From NCBI GenBank assembly GCA_963843375.1, contig CAWJKT010000004.1, positions 384,001-448,000 of the forward strand: a DNA stretch of 64,000 bases, given 5' to 3'. Shown here piece by piece: positions 47,722 through 64,000 of this stretch. Every line of letters begins with the position of its first letter. The first letter of the stretch is position 1. This stretch comes from an uncultured Pseudomonadota bacterium (GTDB lineage Bacteria; Oederibacteriota; Muellerivitia; Muellerivitales; Muellerivitaceae). A program made the position numbers and the translations under genes. The notes below the pieces were generated by a model, which was not told the origin of the DNA, made no database searches, and worked only from the letters and a program-made list of their open reading frames with translations.

Positions 47722-48885
47722 TTAGTCCGACTCGGCTGTTTCGGAATTGTAAGCATTGCCTTCGGCATCGAACAAGTCGTAAGAACCATCGTTTAATTTC
47801 AACATGATTTCCAGAGGCCTGCCGTTGTCCAGGTTCGAATATTGAACACTTTGGACACCCGAAGCCAGATAAACAGGCTCAAAGGCCTGCGGATTGGCCG
47901 TATCATACAAGAAAGCGTCCCCGTCACCTGGTACGACTTTCACCATCCTCTTGCTGTCGGGGCTGTTATAAACCAAGTCGGTTGATTGCTCGGCGCCCGT
48001 CACAACCACCTGGTCATCCGCAGAATTGGCGGGGATATAGTTGTCATCGTCATAAACATAAAGCTCCCCCACGTGATAGGGATCCTGCCACCACCAATAA
48101 TTGTCGTTATAGAAACACCAGCGGTTAAAGCCAGGGTCATACCACCACCAACGGCCATCGTAATTTCGGGTCCAAAAAAACTGGTCACCCGCGTACCAGC
48201 CATACCATTGATAACCCGAATTATCGATAAAGTGGGAGTAGCTAAAACCACCGTCGGTATGCCAATAAACATGGTTTCTTTGGGTTTCATTGGCGTTTTC
48301 CCGGTCGATGCGCTGCATATAGGCCGGACGATTCACGACCGACATCTGGTTGCGCACCACGCTTCCATTAAATTGCCGGGGAGAAACCATCGATCCCTTG
48401 AAAGGCTCGCCTTTTGGGCCTGTGGAAGGATTACCAATCATCGAATGGGCGCGATCCGTGGAAACTATCTCGGAACGGTCGGCAATGTATTTGGGTTCGG
48501 TCTTCACGCCGATTTTCGACAACTTCTTACGGACATAACCCTGTTTATAGGCATGGTGATGAACGGCGGTAGCCGACCGTACTCCCGGCACGTGAGCGGT
48601 ACTCGATGGCCGAACGGCATGTGTTTTTGGAGCCGTCTGGATCCTCTGAGTTTGGCTATAGGAGGGATGGTATGCCGGGTGATAAGTATTGTCACCACTG
48701 TAGTGATTCATTTGAATCCGCACCGGCTGACGGGCTTGTGTCGAGGAATGCGTAAATGATCTGCCGCGACTATCGCCATCTCCACCGCGACTTTCTCCAC
48801 CCCTTCCAGCATGTTCTTCCGCAAAACAAACGGCAACGCCTAGAAAAAGAACGAACAACCAAGATAAACAGGTGATTTGTTTCAT
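47722..48885 (-). CDS. secreted protein with low-complexity N-terminus and Trp/Tyr-rich domain
   Basis: Signal peptide; WYGWY...FFWTRNY.GRWWWYD...WWWQDP. Confidence 0.75.
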   Translation of the reverse strand: MKQITCLSWLFVLFLGVAVCFAEEHAGRGGESRGGDGDSRGRSFTHSSTQARQPVRIQMNHYSGDNTYHPAYHPSYSQTQRIQTAPKTHAVRPSSTAHVPGVRSATAVHHHAYKQGYVRKKLSKIGVKTEPKYIADRSEIVSTDRAHSMIGNPSTGPKGEPFKGSMVSPRQFNGSVVRNQMSVVNRPAYMQRIDRENANETQRNHVYWHTDGGFSYSHFIDNSGYQWYGWYAGDQFFWTRNYDGRWWWYDPGFNRWCFYNDNYWWWQDPYHVGELYVYDDDNYIPANSADDQVVVTGAEQSTDLVYNSPDSKRMVKVVPGDGDAFLYDTANPQAFEPVYLASGVQSVQYSNLDNGRPLEIMLKLNDGSYDLFDAEGNAYNSETAESD

Positions 48886-48945
48886 GTTACCCCTTTTTTA
48901 TTATCCACTTTTGATGCGTTCGTCGATCATCAAGCAGATAGGTAA

Positions 48946-48961
48946 AGCAAGAATTGAGCCC
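48946..48961 (-). promoter_or_regulatory. sigma54 -24/-12 promoter
   Basis: GGGCTCAATTCTTGCT (GG-N10-GC). Confidence 0.7.
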
Positions 48962-49000
48962 GTAAAATATTCGGTAATTCCGAAAGCCGCCGCTTTAGGC

Positions 49001-49033
49001 GATCAGAACGATAGCCTTATTCTCATTTTGGGT
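49001..49033. promoter_or_regulatory. paired upstream activator motif, copy 1
   Basis: GATCAGAACGATA-N7-TCTCATTTTGGGT. Confidence 0.6.
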
Positions 49034-49092
49034 TTCAACCGCTTTAAAAACCAAACAACGAACCTATTCCACTTTTAAAACCACTAGGCCCA

Positions 49093-49108
49093 TGGCTTGC
49101 TTCTTGCT
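49093..49108 (+). promoter_or_regulatory. sigma54 -24/-12 promoter
   Basis: TGGCTTGCTTCTTGCT; an overlapping alternative AGGCCCATGGCTTGCT starts at 49086. Confidence 0.65.
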
Positions 49109-49173
49109 TTTAATCCTAGATTCCCCACTTGAGCTTGGCCTCAAGTCGCTAAATTTCACAAAGGAGAACGTAT

Positions 49174-49956
49174 ATGAGATATATGACGCTGACATTGATC
49201 TCGATCATGGGGTTGGTAACGGTTTCGACTGTTGTGGTTTTGGCCGGGGATTCCTCCCCGGTGTCAAATGAAAATCATTCCACCGAAAAAAAGTCCGCGC
49301 AAGGGAATGTCCAATGGTATGAAAAAGCCGCTGAAACGATCGGTCCAGTGGACGGCATGGCCTCCAAGGGTGAAGACAATCTCACTCTACAAGCGGGAAG
49401 TATCGCTTACATGGAGGGAAACTCCACTTTGCATAAGTACCAGATGAACGCTACTGCTTTGAAAGGTTCGGCACTTTTGAAAGCCTCCTCAAAAGATCTG
49501 GTCAAGGCTCTCAAGAATGGGAAAGTGGGTGCCATGACTTTCATGGTTCCGCTCATCAGCTTCAAGTCGAAGGACTCGGGTCTGGATAAAAACGCTTATA
49601 AAGCCCTTAAAGCCAAGGACGATCCAGAGATCAAGTTTCTATTAACAAGTGAAACCTTGAAACCCGGCAAGGACGCCGACACTTATGTGATGACTGCCAA
49701 AGGCAGCCTAGCGGTAGCAGGCGAGACAATTCCTATTATTCTTACCGCTGATACGACGTTCAAGGGAGACCAGGTCCGCCTTAAAGGAACACAACAGTTG
49801 AAATTTACGGATTTCAAAATCAAGCCTCCGTCTGCCTCGATTTTGTTTGTTACGATCACCTGCACCGATGAGTTCGAGGTTCATTATGACGTGACCTTCG
49901 GGCCAAGTAAGAGTGGAAACAAGGTGGTGGAGATTACAGGTAGTCGAGGCGGCTGA
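49174..49956 (+). CDS. YceI-family secreted protein
   Basis: GNSTLH, FKSKDSGLD..AYKALKA..PEIKF, GSLAVAG, DFKIKPP. Confidence 0.85.
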   Translation: MRYMTLTLISIMGLVTVSTVVVLAGDSSPVSNENHSTEKKSAQGNVQWYEKAAETIGPVDGMASKGEDNLTLQAGSIAYMEGNSTLHKYQMNATALKGSALLKASSKDLVKALKNGKVGAMTFMVPLISFKSKDSGLDKNAYKALKAKDDPEIKFLLTSETLKPGKDADTYVMTAKGSLAVAGETIPIILTADTTFKGDQVRLKGTQQLKFTDFKIKPPSASILFVTITCTDEFEVHYDVTFGPSKSGNKVVEITGSRGG

Positions 49957-50081
49957 AAAAATTATCAAGGGATCTTATTTCTTTGAACCTCTTTTCTGAA
50001 ATGACCATGACCGGAGGTTGTCCCCTTGGCGAGCGGCCATTTCTTCGTAAATTAATTTAACAAGCAAGTAAAGGCATCAAA

Positions 50082-50783
50082 GTGTTCCACTGGCTGCAGT
50101 CCCTGCTCACCCATAACGGTTATTGGGTCGTTTTTCTGGTAGTGTTTTTGAACAACCTTTGCTTTCCTGTTCCAGGAGATTCGATGTTGTTGGGGGGCGG
50201 CTTTCTTGGGGAAAAGGGAATTCTTTCCTTGTGGGCCGTGATTGCCGCCGGTACGCTGGGGTGCTTTTTGGGTGGTAACGGCGGTTATTGGCTTGGGTGG
50301 CGTTTTGGACGTCGTTTTTTGGAAAAAAATCGCTGGCTCCAGGTTACTCCCGAAAGGGAGGAACAAATGGATCGTTTTTTCGCCAAATTCGGGGCAAAAG
50401 TTGTTTTTTTTGCACGGTTCGTGGCCTTGCTTCACCCTGTAACCGGCATCCTGGCAGGCATTGGGAAAACGCCTTTCCGCCCTTTTCTTTTTTACAACTT
50501 AATAGGAGCCTTTAGCTATTCCGCCCTCTACGCTATCGTGGGATATTTTTTTGGGCAAAGATGGGAACTTTTCAAAAGCTGGATCGGTCCTGTCGCGCTT
50601 TACACGCTTCTGATTGCCGCGGCTCTCTTTTCCCTTAGTTTGTTTTTGCAGCACTCGATTCGTGCTTTTTTTGCCGGGCTTTCCTCAAAAAAAAATCCCA
50701 CCAAAACCATAGTGAAAAAAGCCCCAAAAACTTCCCGTGAGGGTTCTTTAAACCACCCTTCATGGGTGGAAAAGAAACCATAA
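50082..50783 (+). CDS. DedA family membrane protein
   Basis: PVPGDSMLL..GF, LG...GYWLG..FG, VFFARF. Confidence 0.92.
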   Translation: MFHWLQSLLTHNGYWVVFLVVFLNNLCFPVPGDSMLLGGGFLGEKGILSLWAVIAAGTLGCFLGGNGGYWLGWRFGRRFLEKNRWLQVTPEREEQMDRFFAKFGAKVVFFARFVALLHPVTGILAGIGKTPFRPFLFYNLIGAFSYSALYAIVGYFFGQRWELFKSWIGPVALYTLLIAAALFSLSLFLQHSIRAFFAGLSSKKNPTKTIVKKAPKTSREGSLNHPSWVEKKP

Positions 50784-51122
50784 ATGGAAAAGCCTATCAA
50801 ATCGAGAGTTCCTCAGCTAAGAAAATTAACAAAGAATTGTAAAGGACTTGCCGTTTTATTGTTGGGGAGGAGTACAATCATATTGATCAAACGGCCATCA
50901 ATCCGATGGTCCACGGCCCCGGCGAATGTCCCAAGGGAATCCGAACCAATCTTTAAACCTCAATTTGGTTCAACCAACTCGGCCTTTTCAAATCACTATC
51001 ATTTAAATAAATATTTGGTGGATGTAGAAACGTCCCGCAAAAATCCCGGTCAATCTGACGGAAGTCATAATCCAAAATTTCTCGAATGAAAAAATGAGCA
51101 AGATCCTTGAAGGGAGCTGTTT

Positions 51123-52751
51123 ATGCGCGTTGAAGACCTGGACTTAAAAGAATTATTGGAGTTGGACCCGGGCGGGGGAATGGTTCATTTCGCGGGGCAG
51201 AGAGCCTTGATCTTTGATGCCGTGGCCCAGGGACTCCTCCGTAAGGAACTCATCGATGCTTATGGTGAAAGAACGGCCAGGGGTATTCTCAGTCGTTTCG
51301 GATATATCCACGGTAGGCGTCTGGCGGTAGCCTTGAAATCCAAATTCAAATGGGACACCGCAGAAGAATGGCAGAAAGCGGGAGCCAGGATTTTGGCACT
51401 TCAGGGTCTTTTTATGTTAGATCCTAACAGTCCCAATGCTTTCGGCCCCGAAGGTGGGACTTGGCGCGTTTCCTATGAAGCCGAACAACATATTCTTTTG
51501 AAGGGCCGTTCGGATAAGTCAGTCTGTTGGAACCTTTGCGGGATGATCAGCGGTTACTTGAGCTTCTGCTTGGACAAGGAAATGTACGCTCTGGAGGATA
51601 AGTGCATCGGAAAGGGCGATACGGCCTGCCATGTGGTGATCAAGTCCGAGGAAGAATGGGGAGACGAGGTTGACGGTGAATTGGCAGTTTTCAAGCGGGT
51701 GGGGATTGACGAAGCCTTGCGAGACGTTACTACCATCCTTAAACGAACGGAAAGCGAATTGCAGGAGAGAACCCGCAAGCTAACGGTCATCGCCAAAATC
51801 GAGGAGGATCCGGCCGAACTTTTGGCTCGAAGTCCTGAAATGCGTAACTTAATGGAACTGGCTAAGACCATTGCTGCCATTGACTCCACGGTATTGATTA
51901 CTGGGGAGAGCGGAACGGGGAAAGAAAGAGTGGCGCGCTTTGTCCACGATCATTCGCCACACGCGGCGGGCCCATTTATTGCCGTGAACTGCGGAGCTAT
52001 CACCGAGACCCTATTGGAAAGCGAACTTTTTGGCCATGCTCGGGGTTCTTTTACGGGCGCCACGTCGGATCGTCCGGGACTTTTTGAAGCTGCCAATGGC
52101 GGGACTCTTTTCCTTGATGAGGTTGGCGAGATCACACTTCCCATGCAGGTGAAGCTCCTTCGGGCGCTTCAGGAAAGAGAAGTGCGGCGGGTTGGCGAGA
52201 ACAAAAGCCGCCCCATCAATGTTCGCATCGTTAGCGCGACCAATAAGAACCTTAAGGTCGAGGTGGCGGAGAAAAGATTCCGGGAAGACCTTTATTATCG
52301 CCTGAACGTGGTGGAACTGGCCGTTCCTCCCCTGCGCAAGCGCCGGGAAGATATCCTACCCCTCGCACGCCTGCTTCTTGCGGAATCCGCGATCCAAATG
52401 AAAAGAGACGTCGACGGCTTGACTGCCGCGACGGCGGACCAACTGATCAGTTACGCCTGGCCTGGGAACGTGCGCGAACTGGCGAATGCCATGGAGCGAG
52501 CGGTCGCAGTGGCCAAGACGAACCGCGTTGATCTGGAGGATCTTCCTCCCGAAGTGTTAATGAAAATGCCACTGGTTTCCGACAAAGGCATTCCACGGTT
52601 TTTAAAGGATGTGGAGAAGGATTGTATCCTTGGGGCGTTGGAAAAGACGGAGGGGAACCGAAGAAAAGCCGCCGATATGATGGGTGTGGGTGTGGCGACA
52701 CTCTATCGTAAACTCAAGGCCTATAAATTGTTGGATCGGGTGAAAGATTAG
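51123..52751 (+). CDS. XylR/DmpR-type sigma54-dependent activator (XylR_N + V4R + AAA+ + HTH)
   Basis: LRKELI..G, SYEAE, C...G..SG...E.KC..KGD..C; GESGTGKE, ESELFGH, GSFTGA, FLDE, WPGNVREL, TLYRKLK. Confidence 0.95.
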   Translation: MRVEDLDLKELLELDPGGGMVHFAGQRALIFDAVAQGLLRKELIDAYGERTARGILSRFGYIHGRRLAVALKSKFKWDTAEEWQKAGARILALQGLFMLDPNSPNAFGPEGGTWRVSYEAEQHILLKGRSDKSVCWNLCGMISGYLSFCLDKEMYALEDKCIGKGDTACHVVIKSEEEWGDEVDGELAVFKRVGIDEALRDVTTILKRTESELQERTRKLTVIAKIEEDPAELLARSPEMRNLMELAKTIAAIDSTVLITGESGTGKERVARFVHDHSPHAAGPFIAVNCGAITETLLESELFGHARGSFTGATSDRPGLFEAANGGTLFLDEVGEITLPMQVKLLRALQEREVRRVGENKSRPINVRIVSATNKNLKVEVAEKRFREDLYYRLNVVELAVPPLRKRREDILPLARLLLAESAIQMKRDVDGLTAATADQLISYAWPGNVRELANAMERAVAVAKTNRVDLEDLPPEVLMKMPLVSDKGIPRFLKDVEKDCILGALEKTEGNRRKAADMMGVGVATLYRKLKAYKLLDRVKD

Positions 52752-52783
52752 GAACTTCGCTCAGCTAAAAAGAAAATCAATAA

Positions 52784-53482
52784 TTACGCCAAGTCAAAGA
52801 GAAGAATTTCGGTTGGCTCTATTGAGGTAAAAGAAACGCAAATTTCGCCAGAAAAACCGGCTCCATCTCCGGCTTTAAGATTTAGTTCATTTAGTGTAAT
52901 CCGGCCTTTGACCACATGAAGCCAGGCTCTCCTTCCAGGCTTCAATTCATGAATCATGTGGTTTCCCTTATGAATCAGCGTGGAATACATTTGGACGTCC
53001 TGTTGTATTTTGAGGGAATCCTCTTTTCCGTCAGATGAGGCGATAAGCCTTAGGATCCCTTTGCGCTCGGCTAGGGTGAAAAATTTTTTGCTTCCTTTTG
53101 CTTCCATCACCCCGGTACCGAGGGTAAAGCCGCTTTGGAAAACATGCGCGTCCTCGGAAGAGGAAAGATCATATGCGGAAAGTTTTGTGCCAGAGGTGGC
53201 TTTGACTCGGTGAAATTCTTGGGCCCTCAGCAATTCGGGATTTTCAAAAAGTCCTTTATATACTATAAGGCCTTCGTGGACATAACTGACGACGACCATA
53301 TCCTCGTGTGTGTGTAGGATGAATCCATGGCCTGGTGAAAGGATTTCCTCGTTGAATATCTTGAGTGATCCAAAACCTTCTTTGAGAGGATCGAACTTAT
53401 TTTCCCAGTCGAAAGTCAACCAAGTGCTTTGATTCTCGTTGGAGATATGGCGCCGTTCTTCCGATTTTCTGACCGTGATCAT
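52784..53482 (-). CDS. pirin-family (YhhW-like) protein with altered metal site
   Basis: GFGSL..FNEE...PG.GF..HTH, IASSDG..SL.IQQD, GDGA, EILLFDL. Confidence 0.85.
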   Translation of the reverse strand: MITVRKSEERRHISNENQSTWLTFDWENKFDPLKEGFGSLKIFNEEILSPGHGFILHTHEDMVVVSYVHEGLIVYKGLFENPELLRAQEFHRVKATSGTKLSAYDLSSSEDAHVFQSGFTLGTGVMEAKGSKKFFTLAERKGILRLIASSDGKEDSLKIQQDVQMYSTLIHKGNHMIHELKPGRRAWLHVVKGRITLNELNLKAGDGAGFSGEICVSFTSIEPTEILLFDLA

Positions 53483-53638: not shown

Positions 53639-53654
53639 TGCAAATAACACGCCA
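53639..53654 (-). promoter_or_regulatory. sigma54 -24/-12 promoter of pirin gene
   Basis: TGGCGTGTTATTTGCA. Confidence 0.75.
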
Positions 53655-53706
53655 ACAGCTTCTGGTTTCTTTTATCTGCTTTTTTGATGATTGAGATTGC
53701 CGAAGG

Positions 53707-53740
53707 TGTCAAAACGAGAAAAAAGAATATCGTTTTGATC
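53707..53740. promoter_or_regulatory. paired upstream activator motif, copy 2
   Basis: TGTCAAAACGAGA-N8-TATCGTTTTGATC. Confidence 0.7.
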
Positions 53741-53889
53741 TATCCGAGGTTCACCCATTGTGAGGCGGTCAGGATTTCAATGAGCCATGAGGGTGTCAAT
53801 TAACCTCTTTACTGTTAGGAGGATGATTTCCTCATGTTGGGGATAGCTGGAAACTCTTACAGAAATGTTTTCTGCGATTCTTTGAGCTT

Positions 53890-54585
53890 TCAAAGCTTAT
53901 CCATCCAATCTTTCAGGAACTCAGCATTTTTAACCATAATTTTTCTGTTTCCAGACGTAATAAGTCCCGCATTTTTTAAGCGAGAGAAGGTGCGGATACA
54001 AGTTTCCACGGAAGTTCCCGCCATGGAGGCGATGAGCTTTCGGGTTAACGGGATGGTGTCACCGAATTCTACCCCCATTTCCACTAGGACTTGGAGGAGG
54101 CGTTTCTCCGCGCTTTCCTGTGAAAGAATTTGCCTGTTCCTGGATTGGCGCAGTAATTTTGCGATTTCTGAAACGACGATCCTGCCCATCTCGGGGTACT
54201 TTCCCATGAGCGACTGGAAACTCCTGATGGGGAAGGACAATACGGTTGCGTCGCTTTCGGCCATGCAATCAAAGCCATAACTTCCGCCATTAAAGGCGGA
54301 TATCCCGAATAGACCCTTGGCTCCCACCATACAGAGGGTGGTATGCCGTCCCTCCTCCGAATGGTGGATTTCTTTAACATGGCCTTGTTTGACCAACCAG
54401 ACGAAATCCGCCTGGTCGTCCTCCCGGAAGATTGATTCCCGTCTCGCGTATTTTCTTACGAGCATATGTCTTTCGATTTCTTGGAGGTCCTCGAAAGAAG
54501 TGCTTTGGAAAATGTCCATGGTAATAAGGCGGTGCTTTTTTTCCGCCCATAAATTGACTGGCTTTATTTTCGTCATTGTTACCAT
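53890..54585 (-). CDS. Crp/Fnr family transcriptional regulator
   Basis: IFREDD, cNMP-type barrel, LTRKLIASMAGTSVETCIRTFS HTH. Confidence 0.92.
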   Translation of the reverse strand: MVTMTKIKPVNLWAEKKHRLITMDIFQSTSFEDLQEIERHMLVRKYARRESIFREDDQADFVWLVKQGHVKEIHHSEEGRHTTLCMVGAKGLFGISAFNGGSYGFDCMAESDATVLSFPIRSFQSLMGKYPEMGRIVVSEIAKLLRQSRNRQILSQESAEKRLLQVLVEMGVEFGDTIPLTRKLIASMAGTSVETCIRTFSRLKNAGLITSGNRKIMVKNAEFLKDWMDKL

Positions 54586-54615: not shown

Positions 54616-55683
54616 TTAGGCCTTCAGAATTACCTTCAGGGCATTTTCTTTGGCGGCGTTGCCGAAGGTGTCATAAGCCTTCATAACATCGAAGAGGGAG
54701 AAACGGTGGGTCCCCATCTTTTTGGCGTCCAGTTTTCCGGACAGCAATACCTTGAGCAGCATGGGTGTTGTTACTGTGTCAACTAGGCGGGTTGTGATAG
54801 TGATATTGCGGTCCCAAAGTTTTTCCAGGTGCAATTCTACTGATTTGCCGTGTACACCTATATTTGCAACTCTTCCGCCGGGGGCAATGATGTTTTGGCA
54901 GGTCTCAAAGGATCCAGGGGTACCGACCGCCTCAATTGCGACATCCACCCCGTTGCCGTTCGTTAATGAATGGATACGATCTTCGACCTTTTCGTTCTTA
55001 AAGTTGATGGTGTGGGTTGCCCCGAAAGAGAGGGACATTTTCAGGCGGTTTTCATCCTGGTCGATCATGATGAGGCGGCCGGGCGAATAAAATTGGGCGG
55101 TCAACAGCGCCGCCAATCCGATGGGACCGGAACCGACGATAGCCACGGTGTCCCCCGGTTTTACCTGTCCGTTTAGAACGCCGCACTCGAATCCGGTGGG
55201 GAAAATATCCGAAAGCATCACCAGAGCCTCTTCGTCGACACCGTCTGGTGCGAGATAAAGACTGTTATCGGCGTGCGGGATGCGGACATATTGGGCCTGG
55301 GTTCCGTCGATGGTATAGCCAAGGATCCAGCCGCCGTCGCGGCAGTGGGAATACATCCCCCTTTTACAGTAGTCGCATTTACCACAGGAAGTGACACATG
55401 AAATGATCACCTTGTCGCCCTTTTTGAATTGGGTGACCCCGGTTCCGACTTCCTCAATGATACCAACCCCTTCATGGCCGAGGATTCGCCCGTCGATGAC
55501 GGCCGGAAGATCCCCTTTCATGATATGAAGATCGGTTCCACAGATAGTGGAAGTGGTGACACGGATGACCGCATCCGTTGTTTTCAGGAGGAGCGGTTTT
55601 GGTTTATCCTCCCAGCTTTTTTGGCCGGGACTGTGATAAACCAAAGCCTTCATGTTGGCGGTTACTTTCTCTTCTTTGAACAT
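54616..55683 (-). CDS. zinc-dependent alcohol dehydrogenase (formaldehyde-dehydrogenase-like MDR)
   Basis: TICGTDLH, GHEG.G, CGKCDYC...C, LSDIFPTG, GSGPIG. Confidence 0.93.
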   Translation of the reverse strand: MFKEEKVTANMKALVYHSPGQKSWEDKPKPLLLKTTDAVIRVTTSTICGTDLHIMKGDLPAVIDGRILGHEGVGIIEEVGTGVTQFKKGDKVIISCVTSCGKCDYCKRGMYSHCRDGGWILGYTIDGTQAQYVRIPHADNSLYLAPDGVDEEALVMLSDIFPTGFECGVLNGQVKPGDTVAIVGSGPIGLAALLTAQFYSPGRLIMIDQDENRLKMSLSFGATHTINFKNEKVEDRIHSLTNGNGVDVAIEAVGTPGSFETCQNIIAPGGRVANIGVHGKSVELHLEKLWDRNITITTRLVDTVTTPMLLKVLLSGKLDAKKMGTHRFSLFDVMKAYDTFGNAAKENALKVILKA

Positions 55684-55776: not shown

Positions 55777-55792
55777 AGCAAGAAATGAGCCA
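55777..55792 (-). promoter_or_regulatory. sigma54 -24/-12 promoter of adh-crp
   Basis: TGGCTCATTTCTTGCT. Confidence 0.75.
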
Positions 55793-55854
55793 CACAAGAG
55801 CGGGTATTTAATTTGGCTTTTTGATATTCATGATGATTAGCGCGATTTGAGTGT

Positions 55855-55889
55855 GATCAAAACGAGAGCGAAGAACGATCATTTTGATC
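55855..55889. promoter_or_regulatory. paired upstream activator motif, copy 3
   Basis: GATCAAAACGAGA-N9-GATCATTTTGATC. Confidence 0.75.
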
Positions 55890-55991
55890 GCTGTTTCTGG
55901 CCAAGCTCAGCTGAAAATCTTGTTCGTGAAAGAAATCCTTTTTTTTACAGGACGCTTGAATATTTGACGCGTTCTTTCATCCACTGCGACG

Positions 55992-56007
55992 GGGTACGAA
56001 ACTTGCT
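55992..56007 (+). promoter_or_regulatory. sigma54 -24/-12 promoter of rhodanese operon
   Basis: GGGTACGAAACTTGCT. Confidence 0.7.
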
Positions 56008-56049: not shown

Positions 56050-56424
56050 ATGTCCATGAGCAAGGAAGCCGTCAAAGAAAAGATAAATGATAAGAATGTT
56101 GTGATATTGGATGTCCTGCCGGAAAGCGATTACGCGAAACTCCACATTGAGGGTTCGGAAAATCTTCCGCTAGGGCTCAACGCCAGCGATTTTGCAGAGG
56201 CGGTCGAGAAAAAATATGGAAAAGAAAAGTTCTTTATTACCTATTGCGACGGTCTGACCTGCAACGCGGGTCCCGACGCGGCCAAAGCCCTACAGAAAAA
56301 AGGGTTCAAAGCGAACGACTATGCCGGTGGCATCCAGGAATGGTCGCAAGCGGGTTTTCCCATCGGGGGAACGGAAGCGAAGAATACTGCGGCATCCTCG
56401 CCACTTCCGGTCGCGCCAAAGTAA
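56050..56424 (+). CDS. rhodanese-domain protein
   Basis: ILDV...Y..HI.GS.NLP, YCDGLTC, YAGG..EW. Confidence 0.9.
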   Translation: MSMSKEAVKEKINDKNVVILDVLPESDYAKLHIEGSENLPLGLNASDFAEAVEKKYGKEKFFITYCDGLTCNAGPDAAKALQKKGFKANDYAGGIQEWSQAGFPIGGTEAKNTAASSPLPVAPK

Positions 56425-56510: not shown

Positions 56511-57014
56511 ATGTTTTCGAATTTTAGAAAATCGGTATCGGTTGGGTTGATGACGGTGGGAACCCTTTTGTTGCCCTTGTGTTCTCGGGCGGACTCGGAT
56601 TATCACCCTACGAATGACAGGGGAAATTTTGGTCTGGGAGTGGAGGCTGGTGATCCGGGCGGTTGGGGCATTACAGGAAAGATTTGGGTCGATAGCGTGA
56701 ACGCTTTCGCTCCGGCTGTAAAGTTCAATGATGGCGGACCGGCCATTCTGCAATTGGATTACCTATGGCACAACTTCGACATCATCCGAATGGACAACGG
56801 CGAGATGCCCTTTTACATCGGATTGGGCGGAGATCTGCTGCTTTCCGACACCGTTCAAATCGGGGGCCGTATTCCACTGGGAATTTCCTATATTTTCGAC
56901 AAAAGGAATTTTCCGATTGATCTATATTTTCAGATCGTTCCGACCTTTTGGTTTTACGACAGCGGTGTGACTTTGGATTGGTATCCGGAAGCGGGGGCTC
57001 ATTTATACCTCTGA
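56511..57014 (+). CDS. small outer-membrane beta-barrel protein
   Basis: Signal peptide; FGLG...G...GITGK.W, DYLWH, FYIGLGG, RIPLGISY.F. Confidence 0.75.
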   Translation: MFSNFRKSVSVGLMTVGTLLLPLCSRADSDYHPTNDRGNFGLGVEAGDPGGWGITGKIWVDSVNAFAPAVKFNDGGPAILQLDYLWHNFDIIRMDNGEMPFYIGLGGDLLLSDTVQIGGRIPLGISYIFDKRNFPIDLYFQIVPTFWFYDSGVTLDWYPEAGAHLYL

Positions 57015-57034
57015 GGTAACGAAAGGGAGTGTTC

Positions 57035-57166
57035 GTGATTGCCACTCTCGCAGTTATTTTGCCGGTTTGTTGGGTGCTGGGGTTGATGACTTCAAAAACG
57101 GCGGGTGGATTTGTCCACGTTTTGTTAGTAATCGCGGTCAGTCATTTTTCGGTTCGCTATATCTGA
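57035..57166 (+). CDS. lmo0937-family small membrane protein (43 aa)
   Basis: Hand translation MIATLAVILPVCWVLGLMTSKTAGGFVHVLLVIAVSHFSVRYI*; GGGAG RBS. Confidence 0.75.
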   Translation: MIATLAVILPVCWVLGLMTSKTAGGFVHVLLVIAVSHFSVRYI

Positions 57167-57247: not shown

Positions 57248-57808
57248 ATGGATATGAAAAAGCTTACTTTAGTGATTGGTTACTTGTTTCTTTTTGCTTT
57301 TGGAAATTCGTTCGCGATAGCCGATGGAGTTGCGCCTGGATTTCCATCTCCACAAATCGGGATTGAGGGTGGGTTTAACATTGCGAGCCTGAATGGCCCG
57401 GTGGGCGACGTGTTCGCTTCCCGTCTGGGGTTCGTGGGTGGGGCTTTCCTTAATTTGCCCTTTGGACCGACCCTGGCGTTTCAGCCTGAGCTTCTTTACG
57501 AACAGAAGGGCGGGGATGTAAATGGTAATCCCTACAGGCTGAATTATATGGAAGTTCCGGTTCTCTTGGATGTTACCTTTTTGGGGCCGCTGGGTATTCT
57601 TTTGGGGCCTGCATTTGCCGCCAATGTGGACAATGAGGGCGTGAGTAATCCCAATAGCACGGACGTGGGTCTGATTCTGGGCGCTCAATTGGATTTCTCC
57701 CGCTTTCTCCTCAGTGGTCGCTATGAAGTGGGACTGACTGATGTGAGTTCCAGCCAAAATATCCAAAACGGAACCTTCACCTTTCTGGCGGGATTTTCGT
57801 TTATTTAA
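57248..57808 (+). CDS. outer-membrane beta-barrel (porin family) protein
   Basis: G..GGFN.A, FQPELLYEQKG, LNYMEVPVLL, RYE.GL, aromatic C-terminus. Confidence 0.85.
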   Translation: MDMKKLTLVIGYLFLFAFGNSFAIADGVAPGFPSPQIGIEGGFNIASLNGPVGDVFASRLGFVGGAFLNLPFGPTLAFQPELLYEQKGGDVNGNPYRLNYMEVPVLLDVTFLGPLGILLGPAFAANVDNEGVSNPNSTDVGLILGAQLDFSRFLLSGRYEVGLTDVSSSQNIQNGTFTFLAGFSFI

Positions 57809-57882: not shown

Positions 57883-58483
57883 ATGTACACCGCTAAAAAC
57901 TACGACCGGTTGTTGGGGCTCCGAGGGTTCAGCGACAAATTGCTCAAAGCCCATTTCAAGCTCTATGAGGGATACGTCGTCCACATCAATAAAATGATGG
58001 ATTTTTTAAAGGGAGCGGATAAGGAGACACAGGCCTATGACGAAGTCAAAAGAAGGTTCGCCTGGGAGTTCAACGGCATGCGGCTCCACGAGGCCTATTT
58101 CGGGAATATGACAACGAAATTTGATGAACTGGATCCGGACTCGGATTTAGGGCGCCCAGATCACTTCGTCATTCGGTTCGATGGAGGCCTGGAAGAAGGA
58201 TTTCAAGGCGGTCTCCAGCATGCGGGGCATCGGCTGGGCGGTTTTGGCTTGGGACCCGGAAGGGCAAAAACTCTTCAACGTTTGGATCAATGAGCACGAC
58301 GTAGGACACCTTTTTTATTGCATCTCCCTCTTGGTCAACGACGTCTTCGAGCATGCCTACATTGCGGATTACGGCTCAGAGCGGAAAGATTATATAGAGG
58401 CCTTTATGAAAGTGATTGACTGGACAGAAGTGCAAAAAAGATTTTCCGGAGTGGTCAAGTTGACTATTTCCCATGACTATTAA
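57883..58483 (+). CDS. Fe/Mn superoxide dismutase family protein (extra base near 58155)
   Basis: AHFKLYEGYV, LHEAYF, FGSMEAW, GIGW, DVFEHAY. Confidence 0.88.
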
Positions 58484-58763
58484 TCTTGAGGGGAATTGGA
58501 CCATCAAAAACTCAAGATCTTTTTCCAAAAGGAAAAACGTGGTTGATTCTTTGACGACGGGGGAAAGAGAGGTTGCGGCGGCTCTTTTGGCCCCCGGTTT
58601 AGTCGAGGGGAATTACCGCTATGACGCCACGACCGATCGGACTGAAATTCTATGGAAATGCTTGAAGTGCGGTGAACTTAAGCCTCGAATCAAATGGGTC
58701 CTAGGCCCTTGTCCCTCCTGTGGCGCCCCGAAATCCCAGTTTGTACTGGTGGATGAAGATTGA
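58473..58763 (+). CDS. rubredoxin-like CxxC protein (start uncertain)
   Basis: WKCLKCG...CPSCGAPKSQF. Confidence 0.65.
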   Translation: MTINLEGNWTIKNSRSFSKRKNVVDSLTTGEREVAAALLAPGLVEGNYRYDATTDRTEILWKCLKCGELKPRIKWVLGPCPSCGAPKSQFVLVDED

Positions 58764-58985: not shown

Positions 58986-59570
58986 ATGTATCCGACCAAA
59001 GGTGTTTTAGCCGAAAAAGAAGCGATGGAGAAACCTATTTATCCTTTCAAACAGGATTCGAACGTAGAAGGCGGCAAAGGAAGGTCCATATACCCAACCA
59101 AAAATAGCCTTCCCGAAAGCGTCAGAATTCAAATTACAACGCTGTTGCAGGAACGCCTCGTCGACTCGATCGACCTGACACTTCAAGCCAAACAAGCCCA
59201 TTGGAACGTGAAGGGGCCCAACTTCATCGCTTTACATGAACTATTTGATAAAGTCGCAGAAGACGCAGAAACCTATGTGGATCTGATCGCGGAAAGAATT
59301 ATACAACTGGGCGGGGTCGCCGTGGGAACGCGGGGTCCGGTGGGAAAAAATTCAACACTGCCCGAATATCCGGTGACCATTTCCAGCGGCAAAGAGCATG
59401 TAGCGGCTATGTCCCATGCTTTGGCTTACTTTGGGGAATCGGTCCGTAAGGCCATCGGTCAAGCCACAGAGATAAACGATGCAGGTACTGCGGACATCCT
59501 CACGCAGATTTCACGAGCGGCGGATAAATTTTTGTGGTTCGTGGAAGCCCATGGCCAAGCTGCCCATTGA
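58986..59570 (+). CDS. dps: DNA protection during starvation protein
   Basis: KQAHWNVKGPNFIALHELFD, DLIAERI..LGG, LWFVEAH. Confidence 0.95.
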   Translation: MYPTKGVLAEKEAMEKPIYPFKQDSNVEGGKGRSIYPTKNSLPESVRIQITTLLQERLVDSIDLTLQAKQAHWNVKGPNFIALHELFDKVAEDAETYVDLIAERIIQLGGVAVGTRGPVGKNSTLPEYPVTISSGKEHVAAMSHALAYFGESVRKAIGQATEINDAGTADILTQISRAADKFLWFVEAHGQAAH

Positions 59571-59591
59571 TCAGGTGCGCACATTTCCGAA

Positions 59592-59607
59592 CGGCACGTT
59601 CCTTGCC
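59592..59607 (+). promoter_or_regulatory. sigma54 -24/-12 promoter
   Basis: CGGCACGTTCCTTGCC, near consensus. Confidence 0.7.
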
Positions 59608-59821
59608 TTAACCTTGTCTTGTTGATGCAGTCGAAAGGGCTGGCCTGAACCAAGAGCCAGCGCTTTACTTTGAGTTGGAGGTATTGAATGAAGTTAAGAA
59701 ATCTAGGTTTTTTATCGCTTTTGTTGGTGTTGTTTTCAACGTTTGGGTAGTGACTCATTTTGAATTCTTCATTGGCTTTTAAGAGCTTTTGCTTCAATCC
59801 TGCTCGCTGTATAATTCTCAC

Positions 59822-60067
59822 ATGCCAAGAGGACCACAAGGACAACAACGACCTGCTGACGTGATTGGAGCCGCCGTCATGGTGGCGAAAATAGCCACGG
59901 GTCAAATCATAGACTCAAAGCCGCTTGAAGGGTTGGAGTATGCCCAACGTGGTGGCCGTTTAGGTGGACGTAACCGAGCCAAACAGTTATCAGCCAAAAA
60001 ACGAACCGCAATTGCCAAGAAAGCCGCAAAAGCACGCTGGAATAAGAAGCCAAAACGTCACACGTAG
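59822..60067 (+). CDS. small basic protein inside the IS
   Basis: MPRGPQGQQRPADVIGAAVMVAKIATG...GG..GG..RA..LS...R..IAKKAA.ARW. Confidence 0.8.
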   Translation: MPRGPQGQQRPADVIGAAVMVAKIATGQIIDSKPLEGLEYAQRGGRLGGRNRAKQLSAKKRTAIAKKAAKARWNKKPKRHT

Positions 60068-60166
60068 CCATTAGGCCCATGATTGCACAGATAAGCGCTT
60101 TTCCTTAACTTTCATAACCGATAAATTAACTCCTAAACTCGTAAAAATAATCAGAAATAAGGCCTT

Positions 60167-60421
60167 TTACGTCCATTTTTGGCCCTTAATTTTATTGTCT
60201 TTATTTGGGTTTTGTTGATAATTGCGGATTAGGAGGTTTAAAGAGATGAAAAGAGCTAGATAGCCGTATCTAGCTGAGATGCGGCGACAAAAAGAAGGGG
60301 GAAGGTGAAACCGACTTCGCGAGAAGGACACCAACCCCCACTCAGCTACAAACTGAGTGAACATTATTCCTTCCTGTTTTATTCCGCAACAATAAAATTT
60401 TTTAATTTTCTTTTCATTCAT
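60167..60421 (-). CDS. AT-rich passenger ORF, possibly degraded
   Basis: 84 aa with AAGGG RBS; hydrophobic in-frame continuation past the TAA. Confidence 0.35.
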   Translation of the reverse strand: MNEKKIKKFYCCGIKQEGIMFTQFVAEWGLVSFSRSRFHLPPSFCRRISARYGYLALFISLNLLIRNYQQNPNKDNKIKGQKWT

Positions 60422-60471
60422 AAATCCCTTTTTTCATTAAGGTTTTAATCATAATTACAAAATGAACTATT

Positions 60472-60503
60472 TGCTTGACACTCAAGCATAAAATATTTAT
60501 ACT
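60472..60503 (+). promoter_or_regulatory. sigma70 promoter of transposase overlapped by a palindrome
   Basis: TTGACA-N17-TATACT; TGCTTGA-cac-TCAAGCA at 60472-60488. Confidence 0.8.
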
Positions 60504-60509
60504 ATGCCA

Positions 60510-61346
60510 ATGAACAAATTGCCTTTAGAAAAACGAATCCAAATTATCCAAATGCTCTGCGAGGGTTCTTCGTTGCGGTCCATTTCTAGGGTTGCGGATG
60601 TTTCATTCAACACCGTTTTAAAAATGGTAGTTACGGCAGGGCAAGCCTGTTCAGCCTATCACGATGCCCAGGTTAAGGGCATAACCAGCAAGCGGGTGCA
60701 ATGCGATGAAATTTGGTCGTTTTGCTATGCCAAACAGAAACAAGCCATACACCTTAAAAATCCAAATGCCGGTGATGTTTGGACCTGGACGGCCATAGAC
60801 GCCGACACGAAGTTAATTATTAGCTACATGGTAGGGAATAGGGACTCTGATTCGGCCATCTTACTCATGGACGATCTGCGGGGAAGGTTAGAAAACAGGG
60901 TTCAATTAACCACGGACGGCCATCATGCTTATTTAGACGCTGTAGAAGGGGCTTTTGGGGGAAATATAGATTATGCCCAATTGATTAAGATTTATGGCCC
61001 TTCTTCCGAAGCTGTCAAGGGTCGTTATAGCCCTGCCGAATGCACAGGAGCCCGTAAAACCCCAATTACTGGGAAGCCAGATAATGACCACATCAGCACG
61101 TCATACGTCGAGAGGCAAAACCTTAATATTCGCATGGGAATGAGGCGTTTTACCCGCTTAACTAACGCCTTCTCAAAGAAAATTGAAAATCATTGCTACG
61201 CTTTGGCCTTATATTTCATGTTTTATAACTTCGTGCGGATTCATACGACCCTAAAAGTAAGCCCTGCTATGGCTTCCGGTGTAACCAATAAACTTTGGGA
61301 AATGAAGGATTTAGCCACCATGATTGATGAATATTCGGTAAGTTAA
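60510..61346 (+). CDS. IS1-family DDE transposase (single ORF)
   Basis: N-terminal HTH (EGSSLRSISR), VQCDEIWSF, LTTDG, VERQNL, RRFTRLT..FSKK. Confidence 0.92.
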   Translation: MNKLPLEKRIQIIQMLCEGSSLRSISRVADVSFNTVLKMVVTAGQACSAYHDAQVKGITSKRVQCDEIWSFCYAKQKQAIHLKNPNAGDVWTWTAIDADTKLIISYMVGNRDSDSAILLMDDLRGRLENRVQLTTDGHHAYLDAVEGAFGGNIDYAQLIKIYGPSSEAVKGRYSPAECTGARKTPITGKPDNDHISTSYVERQNLNIRMGMRRFTRLTNAFSKKIENHCYALALYFMFYNFVRIHTTLKVSPAMASGVTNKLWEMKDLATMIDEYSVS

Positions 61347-61347
61347 A

Positions 61348-61527
61348 ATGCACTTCATCCATGATGTTTTGGTTTATTTGATAATAATTATGATTGTGGT
61401 TGGAGGTTATGGGACAAGTTCAGCGAGCCCAAAAAGAGCTAAAATATATACATTGCTGTTTGGATTGGGGTTTTTAGGTTTATTTGTGGAAACAATCTGG
61501 AATGCCTTTAAGGTGCTTTTTAAATAA
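61348..61527 (+). CDS. 59 aa two-TM passenger protein inside the IS
   Basis: Hand translation MHFIHDVLVYLIIIMIVVGGYGTSSASPKRAKIYTLLFGLGFLGLFVETIWNAFKVLFK*; starts 1 nt after transposase stop, ends just before right IR. Confidence 0.55.
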   Translation: MHFIHDVLVYLIIIMIVVGGYGTSSASPKRAKIYTLLFGLGFLGLFVETIWNAFKVLFK

Positions 61528-61759
61528 CCCCAAATTCAAAATGAGTCACTACCAACGTTTGGAATGGGTTGCTATCCCTATCATCGTGGACCTGGAGTCG
61601 ACGTGACGGTTCACGACAACCGGTGGCATTATGACCATGATTATGACGATGGTTGGCGCGCGAACCATCCGTGGCATGCGGACCGGAATGACTGGGATCA
61701 TTGATCCCTGACGAAAAGGGAACGCTTTTGTTCCTGAAAAACGCAATGGTTTTGATCCG

Positions 61760-61792: not shown

Positions 61793-61837
61793 GTCTTGCA
61801 GGAAGATGTTTCTGGAGAACGGGTCCAATTTGAAAGA

Positions 61838-61871
61838 AATCAAAACGGGAATTAAGAAGCTCATTTTGATC
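61838..61871. promoter_or_regulatory. paired upstream activator motif, copy 4
   Basis: AATCAAAACGGGA-N8-GCTCATTTTGATC. Confidence 0.7.
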
Positions 61872-61912
61872 GCTCTAATGACTGTGGTCCTTGGGATTAG
61901 GAAGGGGTTTAC

Positions 61913-61928
61913 GGGCCCATTTCTTGCT
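61913..61928 (+). promoter_or_regulatory. sigma54 -24/-12 promoter of sodC operon
   Basis: GGGCCCATTTCTTGCT. Confidence 0.7.
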
Positions 61929-62002
61929 CTATCTATTCAAGTTGCCGACCAGCATTCCGTTGGTTTTAGCCGGTACCTGTTGTTCAAATGAACGGATCAT
62001 TG

Positions 62003-62533
62003 ATGAAAAAAATAATTTTGGTTTTGCTTTTTGTTTTTTCCGCAGGAATGATTCAGGCCGATGTGATCGCAAATACCGTGACGCCTTCTTTGCGCGCGAT
62101 GTGCACTTTGTCACCAGCCTCAGATAGCCGGGTAAAGGGATGGGTTCAGTTCACTCAAAAGAACGGTTATGTGGTGGTCGAAGGGGAAATCAGCGGATTG
62201 ACCCCGGGAAAACACGAATTTCACGTACATGAAAAAGGGGATTGCTCGGTTCTGGATGCATCTTCCGCAGGGGGAGATTTCAATCCCACGCACATGGAAC
62301 ACGGAGATCCTGCCAGCCCTATGCGGCACCTGGGAGATTTGGGTAATATCCGCGCGGATAAGAGCGGAAACGCGAAGTTCAAGTTCCACGAAAAAATTAT
62401 CCAGCTGACGGGCGATGAGTCGATTCTGAACAAATCCTTGATCTTACATGCCGACCCGGACGACATGAAAACCCAACCATCAGGGAATGCGGGAAAACGG
62501 GTCGCTTGTGGTGTCATTGAGCAGATGCATTAA
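62003..62533 (+). CDS. sodC: periplasmic Cu/Zn superoxide dismutase family protein
   Basis: FHVHEKGDC, FNP...HG, RHLGDLGNI, ILHA..DD...QPSGNAGKRVACGVI. Confidence 0.9.
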   Translation: MKKIILVLLFVFSAGMIQADVIANTVTPSLRAMCTLSPASDSRVKGWVQFTQKNGYVVVEGEISGLTPGKHEFHVHEKGDCSVLDASSAGGDFNPTHMEHGDPASPMRHLGDLGNIRADKSGNAKFKFHEKIIQLTGDESILNKSLILHADPDDMKTQPSGNAGKRVACGVIEQMH

Positions 62534-62609
62534 GTTTATGGGACTTGTTTTTTTCGAAAGCTTGGCGTTTTTTTCGGGACTGGAAGTTCACAAATAAAAG
62601 GAGTCGATA

Positions 62610-63215
62610 ATGAAAAATAAAATGTTAAGTGGGTTGATGGTTTCAATTTTGTTCGCCGGGATCGCCGGGTTGTCCCTGGCGGAGGATGACAACCGTATTA
62701 TCGGTAAGCTTGGCCAAAATTCGCCAAAAGATCACTTGAGGACAGCTTCTCTTTACTTGGTTTTTAAGGGAAACAAGGACAACAGTCTGCCCGCCCTTCC
62801 CTCGGGGGACAAAACCCGGTTTTATTCCAAGGTTTGGGATGGTTTATATCTGCAAGTCATCACCGAGCCTGGGGAAAAGGGCAACGAGGGTTATATGTTT
62901 TCTTTTTCCGGAGATGAGGGAAATTTGAATGCCGTGGATACGAATGAATCTCGAGATGTTCCCTCCTTGCGGGAAGTTTCCGCCGCTGATTTTCGAAGTG
63001 ATGATAATTTCTCGATTCGTCCACTGAAACCGGGACCCGGAACACCGGAAGATCGTGGCGCGCAGCGGCTGATTCATTATGACGGTTTTGATGTGGAAAT
63101 CCGGGTGCTCGAATTTAATATTGGCGACGCCGGATTGAAGGAAAAACCTTATTTTAAATCCATTTCCTGCCTAGTAACGGTGAAGGAAACTACGCCGATT
63201 GTGTCGATGAAGTAA
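62610..63215 (+). CDS. secreted hypothetical protein
   Basis: AGGAG RBS, signal peptide (SLA). Confidence 0.75.
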   Translation: MKNKMLSGLMVSILFAGIAGLSLAEDDNRIIGKLGQNSPKDHLRTASLYLVFKGNKDNSLPALPSGDKTRFYSKVWDGLYLQVITEPGEKGNEGYMFSFSGDEGNLNAVDTNESRDVPSLREVSAADFRSDDNFSIRPLKPGPGTPEDRGAQRLIHYDGFDVEIRVLEFNIGDAGLKEKPYFKSISCLVTVKETTPIVSMK

Positions 63216-63254
63216 CAAACCAGCTTGAACACCAACTGGAAAAGGAGAAATAGT

Positions 63255-63419
63255 ATGTCCGAAGAAAGAGATCGTGAGATTCCGGAAGAAAGCTTTGTCA
63301 CCCCCGACCATGTTGAAACTGCGGCTTACTATAAGTGGTTGTCCCGCAGGCGGCCTCTTAACGATTCACTGATGGACTGGGTGGACGCGCACAAAGAATT
63401 AATACAAGCAGCTCGATAA
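63255..63419 (+). CDS. DUF2934-like small protein
   Basis: AAYYKW..R..P....DW..A..EL; AGGAG RBS. Confidence 0.75.
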   Translation: MSEERDREIPEESFVTPDHVETAAYYKWLSRRRPLNDSLMDWVDAHKELIQAAR

Positions 63420-63505
63420 TCATTTTCGAAATAACAGAAAGACGGTTGTGATGGCTTTGACAAAGGGATCTTCATCCTTGAGTTCAATAAGAAAAAGGCG
63501 GCGGC

Positions 63506-63724
63506 ATGACGAAGCAACAACATGAACACCAGTACCTTTCGATTTCGGAACCGGGTACCAACGACGTCCACATCCCTTATTGGCGGTGCGCGCATTGCGA
63601 CTGGCATTTCTTGGCTCTTGGGGTTCTGATGCTGGCGGTCATGGCGATCTACATGCTAACCCTTGATTTGTGCATGAGGCCTCACAGTGAGACGCCTTTG
63701 TTGCAGGAAAACATTGGAGAATAA
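63506..63724 (+). CDS. small single-TM protein
   Basis: 72 aa; PYW..AH.DW.F..GV.LML..M.IY. Confidence 0.6.
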   Translation: MTKQQHEHQYLSISEPGTNDVHIPYWRCAHCDWHFLALGVLMLAVMAIYMLTLDLCMRPHSETPLLQENIGE

Positions 63725-63727
63725 AAA

Positions 63728-63907
63728 ATGAAACGCATAACCAAGTGGAGCTTCCAAAATCGAAGTAAAAATCAAAAGGGCCAAACGACAACTTATGCCG
63801 TCGTCCTCGGTTTTTTGATCGCAGTGGGATTGTTTGTCGCGATCAAATATTTTTATGACCGGGACAACGATATCAACATTCACCTGCCCAGGGTAGAAGT
63901 GCATTAA
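63728..63907 (+). CDS. 59 aa single-TM protein
   Basis: Hand translation MKRITKWSFQNRSKNQKGQTTTYAVVLGFLIAVGLFVAIKYFYDRDNDINIHLPRVEVH*; GGAG RBS. Confidence 0.6.
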   Translation: MKRITKWSFQNRSKNQKGQTTTYAVVLGFLIAVGLFVAIKYFYDRDNDINIHLPRVEVH

Positions 63908-63942
63908 CGGTATTTGGGATTTAATCTTTATCAAGAAGGAGT

Positions 63943-64000
63943 ATGGATATGTTCACGGGATTACTGGGTTTATTGGTATTTATCGGCGATGTTTGGGCTA
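63943..64000 (+). CDS. start of probable PLDc_N-type small membrane protein (truncated by window edge)
   Basis: AAGGAG RBS; MDMFTGLLGLLVFIGDVWA. Confidence 0.5.
   Translation, partial: MDMFTGLLGLLVFIGDVWA

Follow-up and report, generated by a model that had tools for sequence, protein, structure and literature searches.

The window analysed here is a stretch of 64,000 nucleotides of contig CAWJKT010000004.1 (C4 in our numbering) from an uncultured bacterium, whose family consists of uncultured soil and peat bacteria. Between positions 47722 and 64000 it carries candidate sigma54 promoters and repeats of an operator-like motif around the gene of a predicted one-component sigma54 activator (51123-52751, + strand), with the domain order XylR_N-V4R-AAA+(GSFTGA)-Fis helix-turn-helix (HTH) as read from Pfam matches, alignment and a structural model. 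The data suggest, at a probability of roughly four in five, that a genome-wide sigma54 general-stress regulon, run by one or more XylR_N/V4R activators, is spread over four islands, of which the window holds one. Four operators are present, with cores at 49003, 53709, 55857 and 61840, and none was found in positions 1-47000 of the window. The bipartite motif described in an earlier note on this DNA is real, but its form was mended to the inverted repeat TCAAAAYGA-N10-13-TCRTTTTGA, which amounts to a pair of imperfect ATCA-N3-TGAT palindromes whose centres lie 20-22 bp from each other.

All seven GG-N10-GC promoters of that note lie where it had placed them (its minus-strand coordinates being low ends), with the GG of the -24 element at 48960(-), 49094(+), 53653(-), 55791(-), 55993(+), 59593(+) and 61914(+). 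The bare GG-N10-GC pattern is uninformative, with 114 occurrences counted in 47.7-64 kb and 164 expected, and promoters were scored with a sigma54 matrix trained solely on promoters of relatives. Six of the seven reach 17.1-24.6 bits and the one at 53653 just 8.1 bits; genome-wide, the top 18 matches and 32 of the 39 matches of at least 17 bits fall in islands. The longer box reported for three of the promoters, GGC.CA.TTCTTGCT, occurs four times in the 4.05-Mb genome, three of them inside the window.

Operator 1 (49000-49034), which is bidirectional and the weakest of the four (21.9 bits with a relatives-trained matrix), lies between two near promoters. One (48946-48960, -; 57 bp to the operator centre; 18.9 bits) has as its first gene that of a secreted protein of 387 aa with no Pfam family (47722-48885, -), whose paralogue on C19 shows the same arrangement of operator and promoter. 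The other (49094-49108, +; 78 bp; 24.6 bits; an overlapping candidate at 49087 has 4.8 bits) precedes genes for a YceI-like periplasmic protein (49174-49956, +) and a DedA/VTT membrane protein (50082-50783, +), both assigned by Pfam. Operator 2 (53706-53741) is 71 bp from the weak promoter match (53639-53653, -; 8.1 bits) in front of a pirin/quercetinase-like cupin gene (52784-53482, -; likely start at Met40 of the listed open reading frame, ORF), which in several relatives, too, lies next to the activator gene in convergent orientation. Operator 3 (55854-55890), again bidirectional, has a near promoter (55777-55791, -; 81 bp; 22.7 bits) in front of the genes of a zinc-dependent alcohol dehydrogenase family protein (54616-55680, -; Pfam) and a Crp/Fnr-family regulator (53890-54585, -), the latter read as a target and not as a binder, and a far promoter (55993-56007, +; 122 bp; 20.8 bits). 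Downstream of the far promoter, all on the + strand, are a single-domain rhodanese (56050-56424; Pfam), a secreted protein without Pfam match that is probably a small outer-membrane barrel and recurs in units of 7 genomes (56511-57014), a DUF5670 small membrane protein (57029-57166; profile match), an outer-membrane beta-barrel of the porin family (57248-57808; Pfam), a Fe/Mn superoxide dismutase (SOD) family gene (57883-58483), a small CxxC protein (58473-58763) and Dps (58986-59570; Pfam). Neither Dps nor the Fe/Mn-SOD has a sigma54 promoter of its own in the window, and they would be transcribed by read-through from 55993; the stretch from that promoter to the two genes has no flagged strong terminator on the same strand. 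Operator 4 (61837-61872), like operators 2 and 3 a matrix match, is 60 bp from a near promoter (61914-61928, +; 17.1 bits), followed on the + strand by the Cu/Zn superoxide dismutase SodC (61988-62533; Pfam), a secreted protein without a family in the Pfam scan (62610-63215), a DUF2934-like small protein (63255-63419; 21.3 bits, cut-off 22) and further small ORFs to the window end.

The pairing of operators with promoters thus holds for six promoters but not for the orphan at 59593 (59593-59607, +), as no pair of at least 8 bits lies between 55890 and 61533. The orphan precedes a small lipoprotein gene (+) that starts at 59688, is interrupted by an IS1-family insertion sequence (IS; 59746-61553, +; 19-bp inverted ends, 8-bp target duplication) standing outside the regulon, and resumes past 61553. 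The element has a small upstream ORF (59822-60067) and, by its end pattern, a single copy in the genome; its ends hold a word that scores 14.6 bits as an operator half-site, probably by coincidence. Two SODs had been named in the earlier note and both families are indeed present, but the Fe/Mn-SOD is split as assembled over two frames (57883-58293 and 58181-58483). Because other genes of the assembly are also frameshifted, error and gene decay are indistinguishable here; a heavy-metal (copper) P-type ATPase at 45150-47431, for instance, is split into three frames. The label rubredoxin-like for the CxxC protein corresponds to DUF7130/rubredoxin-like matches under the Pfam cut-offs. From about position 462000 of C4 (L001 14000-20000), past a transposase-like region, the sequence abruptly becomes GC-rich-looking and is possibly a foreign segment or a mis-assembly.

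The motif clearly exceeds the genome background. Twenty sites of at least 24 bits were found in 4.05 Mb (a genome 80% complete), against 0 and 0 in two 2-Mb fifth-order Markov simulations; the first matrix was trained on the four window sites, so that 16 of the 20 are independent. At 20 bits or more there are 26 sites (2 and 3 in the simulations), 24 of which sit in four islands: C4 (433-457 kb) with six operators, four of them in the window, C11 (339-381 kb) with ten, and C9 (36-83 kb) and C19 (17-33 kb) with four each. The remaining two, on C15 and C1, are outside islands and without promoter and are omitted from the 24. A matrix built from 64 sites of relatives alone recovers precisely these 24 at 20 bits and nothing further. 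An outward GGY-N7-TTGC lies within 260 bp of 23 of the 24 operators, and a stricter promoter pattern is found outward in 19/24 (15/20 minus the training sites) and inward in 0/24, the background being 1.9% at random positions and 2.4% at AT-rich ones. Viral contigs gave 25 chance pattern matches, none with a promoter, and six island loci gave no Rfam match. The genome has rpoN, on C8; it also has two full-length RpoD-class sigma factors over the NCBIfam cut-off (C8:102580 and C6:117754) and two group-2-like sigma factors below all cut-offs, which bear on the idea that the regulon might take the place of an absent RpoS or SigB. The system can however not be called self-contained, as the earlier note had it, since 20 of the 24 operators lie outside the window and two further activator paralogues exist.

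For the geometry of the sites, 59 loci of relatives were analysed, taken from the surroundings of 64 listed sites and of several activators. In these loci 84 sites reach at least 24 bits, of which 80 have an outward promoter and 4 an inward one, and in 79 the unit centres are 20-22 bp apart. The distance from operator centre to the -24 GG is about 57-128 bp and clusters near 59, 69, 79, 89, 100, 111 and 122 bp, with a best period of 10.5 bp (R 0.48, n=129; 0.43 after de-duplication, n=107). Near promoters (<92 bp) have T after GGC in 39/65 cases and far promoters the canonical A at this position in 62/64; 36 of 101 operators are two-way, 23 of these being near plus far. A third distance class of about 212-224 bp (C11:347217, C11:360726, L069, L081) precedes an ice-binding-like lipoprotein gene in each case. 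The DNA between operator and promoter is unconserved (median identity 0.34, 46 pairs). This bears on a passive origin of the repeats, as copies of mobile-element ends or of a promoter cassette that was duplicated, without current regulatory selection, which might be thought from the clustering of sites in islands, the several broken island genes, two C9 modules that are 61-77% identical, and the half-site-like word in the IS ends of the window. Since conservation is limited to operator, promoter and phased distance while the DNA between has diverged, and extends over 11 genera, such a reading is largely refuted and very improbable.

The link between motif and activator drawn in the earlier note was followed in 99 genomes of the phylum, namely 30 family relatives (31 genomes with our own) and 68 of other families. 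The activator was found only in the family, where 18 of the 30 relatives have it by agreeing protein and Pfam searches; outside there are ten weak XylR_N matches, nine of them in short frames. A strict site is present in 15 of the 18 relatives with the activator and in 1 of the 12 without it (68 sites versus 1), and within the family the number of sites follows that of activator copies (Spearman 0.84). Among the 68 genomes of other families the strict operator was found once, and a reversed-pattern control gave 0 in all 99. Of the three relatives that seemed to lack the site despite an activator, two (G048 and G063) do have sites beside it by matrix search. Within genera, sites with versus without activator numbered 5 versus 0, 0 and 0 (g15), 13, 7 and 6 versus 0 (g17), and 1 versus 0 (g16), with G052 as the one exception to this contrast.

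These distributions also bear on whether a different protein reads the operator, be it the island Crp/Fnr regulator, another enhancer-binding protein or IHF. The operator word TTGAT/ATCAA is also the half-site of Fnr and is contained in the consensus for IHF, a crp gene lies inside the island, and one relative (G052) has an operator without V4R activator. However, the island-type Crp (at least 51% identity) occurs in just 7/31 genomes and is missing from the site-bearing G046, G049, G050 and G067, a Crp of about 48% identity is found in most genomes, sites or none, and the half-sites are not in the TTGAT-N4-ATCAA arrangement of the Fnr/Crp box. The genome has five HU/IHF-family genes, but a strict IHF pattern is found in 1/64 far-class spacers. 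It is established that sigma54 requires an AAA+ activator. All 31 genomes carry other enhancer-binding proteins (4-8 in the site-less ones); the activator of about 540 aa common to site-less genomes is GAF-type by inspection, and 623 kb around other enhancer-binding proteins contain no operator. Taken together, a different reader is improbable, and an activator of the XylR_N/V4R type is most likely the protein that reads the operator, its output being a stress programme and not the breakdown of aromatics.

The activator itself matches PF00158 (E 4e-71), HTH_8, XylR_N (87 bits, cut-off 23) and, below the cut-off of 31 bits, V4R (28.7 bits), and its sensor matches the sensors of MopR, PoxR and CapR in sequence. 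It reaches no named NCBIfam equivalog, MobR, ZraR, AtoC and PrdR among them (best PrdR, 352 bits against a cut-off of 795; MobR, 315 against 999). The AlphaFold model is moderate (pLDDT 73, pTM 0.49), and its best fold match, at rank 1, is DmpR (6iy8). The genome encodes three such activators, on C4 (the window), C19 and C9, each inside an island. The loop is GSFTGA in the window activator and GAFTGA in the C9 paralogue. Because the recognition helices of the paralogues are near-identical, one or both of the others could bind the operator beside the 51123-52751 product, or even more than it does. Direct sigma54 autoregulation was considered and rejected, since the 400 bp in front of the activator hold no sigma54-like promoter in any of 13 related loci, and none precedes the three own paralogues; read-through from the 49094 promoter is possible. 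About 200 bp upstream of two paralogues (window 50790-51122; C19 13895-14130) are conserved by eye without a sigma54 promoter, and are probably a sigma70-type promoter or control element. A homologue with 68% identity comes from a metagenome-assembled genome named as Planctomycetes, viral contigs gave no relatives, and plasmid XylR_N proteins reach about 34% identity at most. An ESM Atlas search returned generic activator clusters, and a metagenome search with the activator alignment keyed on generic AAA+ words and found other activators, among which only L117 spans the sensor (43% identity, different subfamily, no operator).

The sensor pocket was mapped with the residue lists for MopR-type proteins in PMC10715001 and PMC7264223. 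The zinc ligands C135/E158/C161/C169, aligned to MopR, are invariant in 62/62 homologues and the pocket Trp (MopR Trp134) is retained in 60/62. The phenol-anchoring His (MopR His106) is found in none of the 62, the residue being Tyr in 40, Leu in 18, Met in 2, Phe in 1 and Ser in 1 (Leu91 in the window activator); the position of MopR Tyr176 is Ala throughout, and an extra Cys139 at the position of MopR Leu159 is Cys in 59/62. Since XylR, a sensor of toluene and xylene, also has Tyr at the position of the phenol His according to PMC7264223, the effector most likely belongs to the class of neutral hydrophobic ligands. A small, hydrophobic and non-phenolic compound, bound in a pocket of XylR type that has been remodelled, has about even odds.

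The same residues enter into two other views of the sensor. An ordinary aromatic-responsive XylR-type system, with an aromatic solvent as effector and the genes as a solvent-tolerance response, would agree with the XylR-like Tyr in 40/62 homologues and with the presumed solvent-stress genes reported for AphR regulons in PMC6449761, and it overlaps with our reading as to effector class. It seems unlikely given the invariant change of Tyr176 to Ala, the 24 operators instead of one or two catabolic operons, annotated targets without a catabolic enzyme, and, in searches whose controls matched, no hit of the ring-hydroxylating (PF00848) or intradiol dioxygenase (PF00775) family in our 80% complete genome; PF02332 had no match in the genome, nor in controls. 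By analogy with MsvR, the wiring could also be the same and the sensor a redox switch, in which oxidation of the zinc-binding cysteines, together with Cys139 one helical turn from Cys135, would release repression. This is in line with the extra Cys in 59/62 homologues, with SODs, Dps, ferritin-like protein, catalase-peroxidase and AhpC among the targets, and with the redox-dependent DNA binding modulated by V4R cysteines in MsvR as given in PMC3729527. On the other hand, plain phenol sensors also carry the three zinc cysteines (PMC7264223), Cys139 is replaced by Ser or Thr in 12/120 homologues, the fourth cysteine is reported as dispensable in MaMsvR (PMC3729527), the majority of targets are not oxidative-stress enzymes, and the pocket residues Trp114, Tyr145 and Ala156 are nearly invariant, as ligand binding would predict. 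We regard a redox switch as the next candidate after a hydrophobic ligand, rather improbable though somewhat less so than a response to aromatic solvents.

The targets were inventoried from 79 of about 153 called ORFs in our own genome, operon extent being inferred from strand and spacing, and from 35 proteins of relatives (34 of 52 cluster representatives plus one). Beyond the window the islands add an intact Fe-SOD, ferritin-like, DoxX, BON, DUF2934 and transglycosylase-associated proteins, five ice-binding-like lipoproteins, LysM, AI-2E, PLD/cardiolipin-synthase-like and Band 7 proteins and a hybrid kinase. Carbon-reserve targets are GH94, glycogen phosphorylase/GlgX/MalQ, acetate kinase, phosphoketolase and pentose-phosphate enzymes, and relatives contribute catalase-peroxidase, AhpC, PPK2, STAS and aldehyde dehydrogenase. 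The commonest first genes are DUF2934 (11 genomes), ice-binding lipoproteins (10), a small His/Asp-rich lipoprotein (9), DUF5670, pirin-like and transglycosylase-associated proteins (8 each) and rhodanese (7). DUF2934 was discarded as a specific marker of the regulon, as it occurs in 28/31 genomes. An operon for ubiquitin-like, E2-like and E1 proteins (C19 20415-24790; L253, L260) has 110 bp from operator to sigma54 promoter, a spacing kept in G050 with a weaker site; the Ubl domain occurs there once more in a membrane-anchored form, preceded by a separate sigma54-like promoter (C19:21691), and likewise in G050, G063 and G044. Two caa3-type oxidase operons (C11 339366-345473, plus Rieske/cytochrome b, and C9 from 82890) lie just beyond operators, share a conserved upstream block with a non-canonical -24/-12-like element and are frameshifted as assembled; no convincing promoter was found for these oxidase/bc operons, beside C11:339140 and C9:82680, as targets. 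No aromatic-catabolic enzyme is among the annotated targets of our genome and its relatives. The stress programme of the earlier note is supported by the annotated targets, but is broader than oxidative, comprising envelope, ice-binding and carbon-reserve genes and an operon of anti-phage-like type.

In the proposed mechanism, dimers of the XylR_N/V4R activator (the window copy and/or the two paralogues) would bind both ATCA-N3-TGAT units, two helical turns apart, and would oligomerise once the zinc-containing sensor domain is occupied. The oligomer may then open sigma54 promoters some 58-125 bp away on the same helix face, often on both sides (typically at about 80 and about 121 bp). The predicted output would include protection against iron and superoxide, proteins of the envelope, small membrane proteins and ice-binding lipoproteins, together with glycogen mobilisation with pentose-phosphate/phosphoketolase enzymes, and secondary regulators. 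We infer operator binding, activation, effector and physiological role from the observed sequence features, enrichment, geometry, co-occurrence and target inventory.

Several points weigh against this reading. The sites on C15 and C1 lie off the islands without promoters, and one of the 24 operators (C9:82680) has no promoter match. In G052, a genome 93% complete, a strong operator comes with both promoters and the usual kinds of target, yet no activator was detected; the cluster at this operator (L202, G052:C45) consists of pirin, two rhodaneses, cupin, DoxX and a lipoprotein, and may be a relic or reflect an assembly gap. For G056 the searches gave two partial matches to the activator but no site, and in G067 (5 sites) the activator is split as assembled. 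Genomes of one family are not independent, so that the p = 9e-5 of the co-occurrence is overstated, and activator and targets could merely travel together as islands. The phasing signal is carried mainly by the two peaks near 80 and 121 bp, the AAA+/HTH part of the activator scores higher with ZraR than with DmpR, the Ser or Thr variants at Cys139 count here as well, and the label "general stress" rests on family names of the targets.

XylR/DmpR-type activators are known and widely annotated as local switches of aromatic breakdown. The same architecture seemingly running tens of survival operons would alter how such genes, of which soil metagenomes hold thousands, are interpreted. A V4R domain with a new ligand specificity would also broaden a scaffold that is already popular in biosensor design. 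As operator consensus and geometry are sharp (over 100 natural sites), the effector question is tractable by a direct reporter test, and the sites chart gene regulation for the first time in this family, which belongs to an uncultured phylum. More tentatively, the system may represent a fourth wiring of the bacterial general stress response, in which a one-component sigma54 activator with a zinc/V4R sensor would be the global master regulator, sensing a stress alarm molecule or redox state and acting through a compact two-way enhancer, with a non-canonical GGCTYG -24 box in near promoters (about 60-80 bp) and the canonical GGYAYG in far ones (about 110-125 bp), and with a ubiquitin-like operon of anti-phage type under stress control. 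The regulons of sigmaB, RpoS and EcfG-PhyR contain Dps, ferritin-like proteins, SOD, catalase-peroxidase, BON, GlsB/YeaQ/YmgE, YihY/BrkB, DUF5670, cardiolipin synthase-like proteins and glycogen enzymes, and the target inventory found here is alike. The window system differs from them in using sigma54 and a one-component enhancer-binding protein, not an alternative sigma70-family factor.

The earlier note knew of no characterised regulon of this kind, and the open-access literature (supplements aside) likewise yielded no description. The lxa locus of Burkholderia cenocepacia, in the extracts of PMC3721108, is similar in being a large clustered survival regulon with one motif at 17 or more intergenic sites and in its acetate kinase, alcohol metabolism and storage-polymer genes, but has an Fnr/Anr-like TGA-N6-TCA motif, is not described there as sigma54-dependent, and is rich in universal stress proteins, of which none is among the annotated targets of the window system. 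MsvR of methanogens is a V4R regulator likewise tied to an oxidative-stress operon, but in the extracts of PMC3729527 it is an archaeal repressor with N-terminal HTH and without AAA+ domain or sigma54. OrpR of Desulfovibrio vulgaris (PMC8359166) is also a one-component sigma54 activator with a redox role, and is set apart by description, not by sequence, as a Fe-S-cluster sensor by title. The available portions of PMC12316311, PMC6615313, PMC4630880 and PMC3063778 treat V4R or XylR-type regulators in general or catabolic terms only.

The closest comparison is with XylR, DmpR (CapR), MopR, PoxR and AphR, which have the same order XylR_N-V4R-AAA+-HTH, the zinc site and the pocket Trp. In the XylR/DmpR group, too, palindromic sites built on a TGAT/ATCA half-site lie in pairs before -24/-12 promoters. 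PMC6449761 calls the predicted AphR site GCTTGATCATTTGATCATGC similar to those of DmpR, XylR and HbpR, which are paired at 29-42 nt. The unit of the AphR site is ATCA-N2-TGAT, whereas that of the window operator is ATCA-N3-TGAT, and the pair spacing of 20-22 bp in the window is shorter than the 29-42 nt of the group, which again weighs against our reading. Sites of the group lie 100-200 nt upstream, while those of the window system are 57-128 bp from the -24 GG and often serve both sides. In the phenol sensors DmpR, MopR and PoxR, His and Trp anchor the phenol hydroxyl, and the window-type activators differ from them in the missing His, the Ala at Tyr176 and the extra Cys. XylR and DmpR control one or a few catabolic operons, the window system about 24 operators with stress targets. 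Overall, the system works like a XylR/DmpR activator and shares its architecture, but departs from it in phenol pocket, site spacing and catabolic targets.

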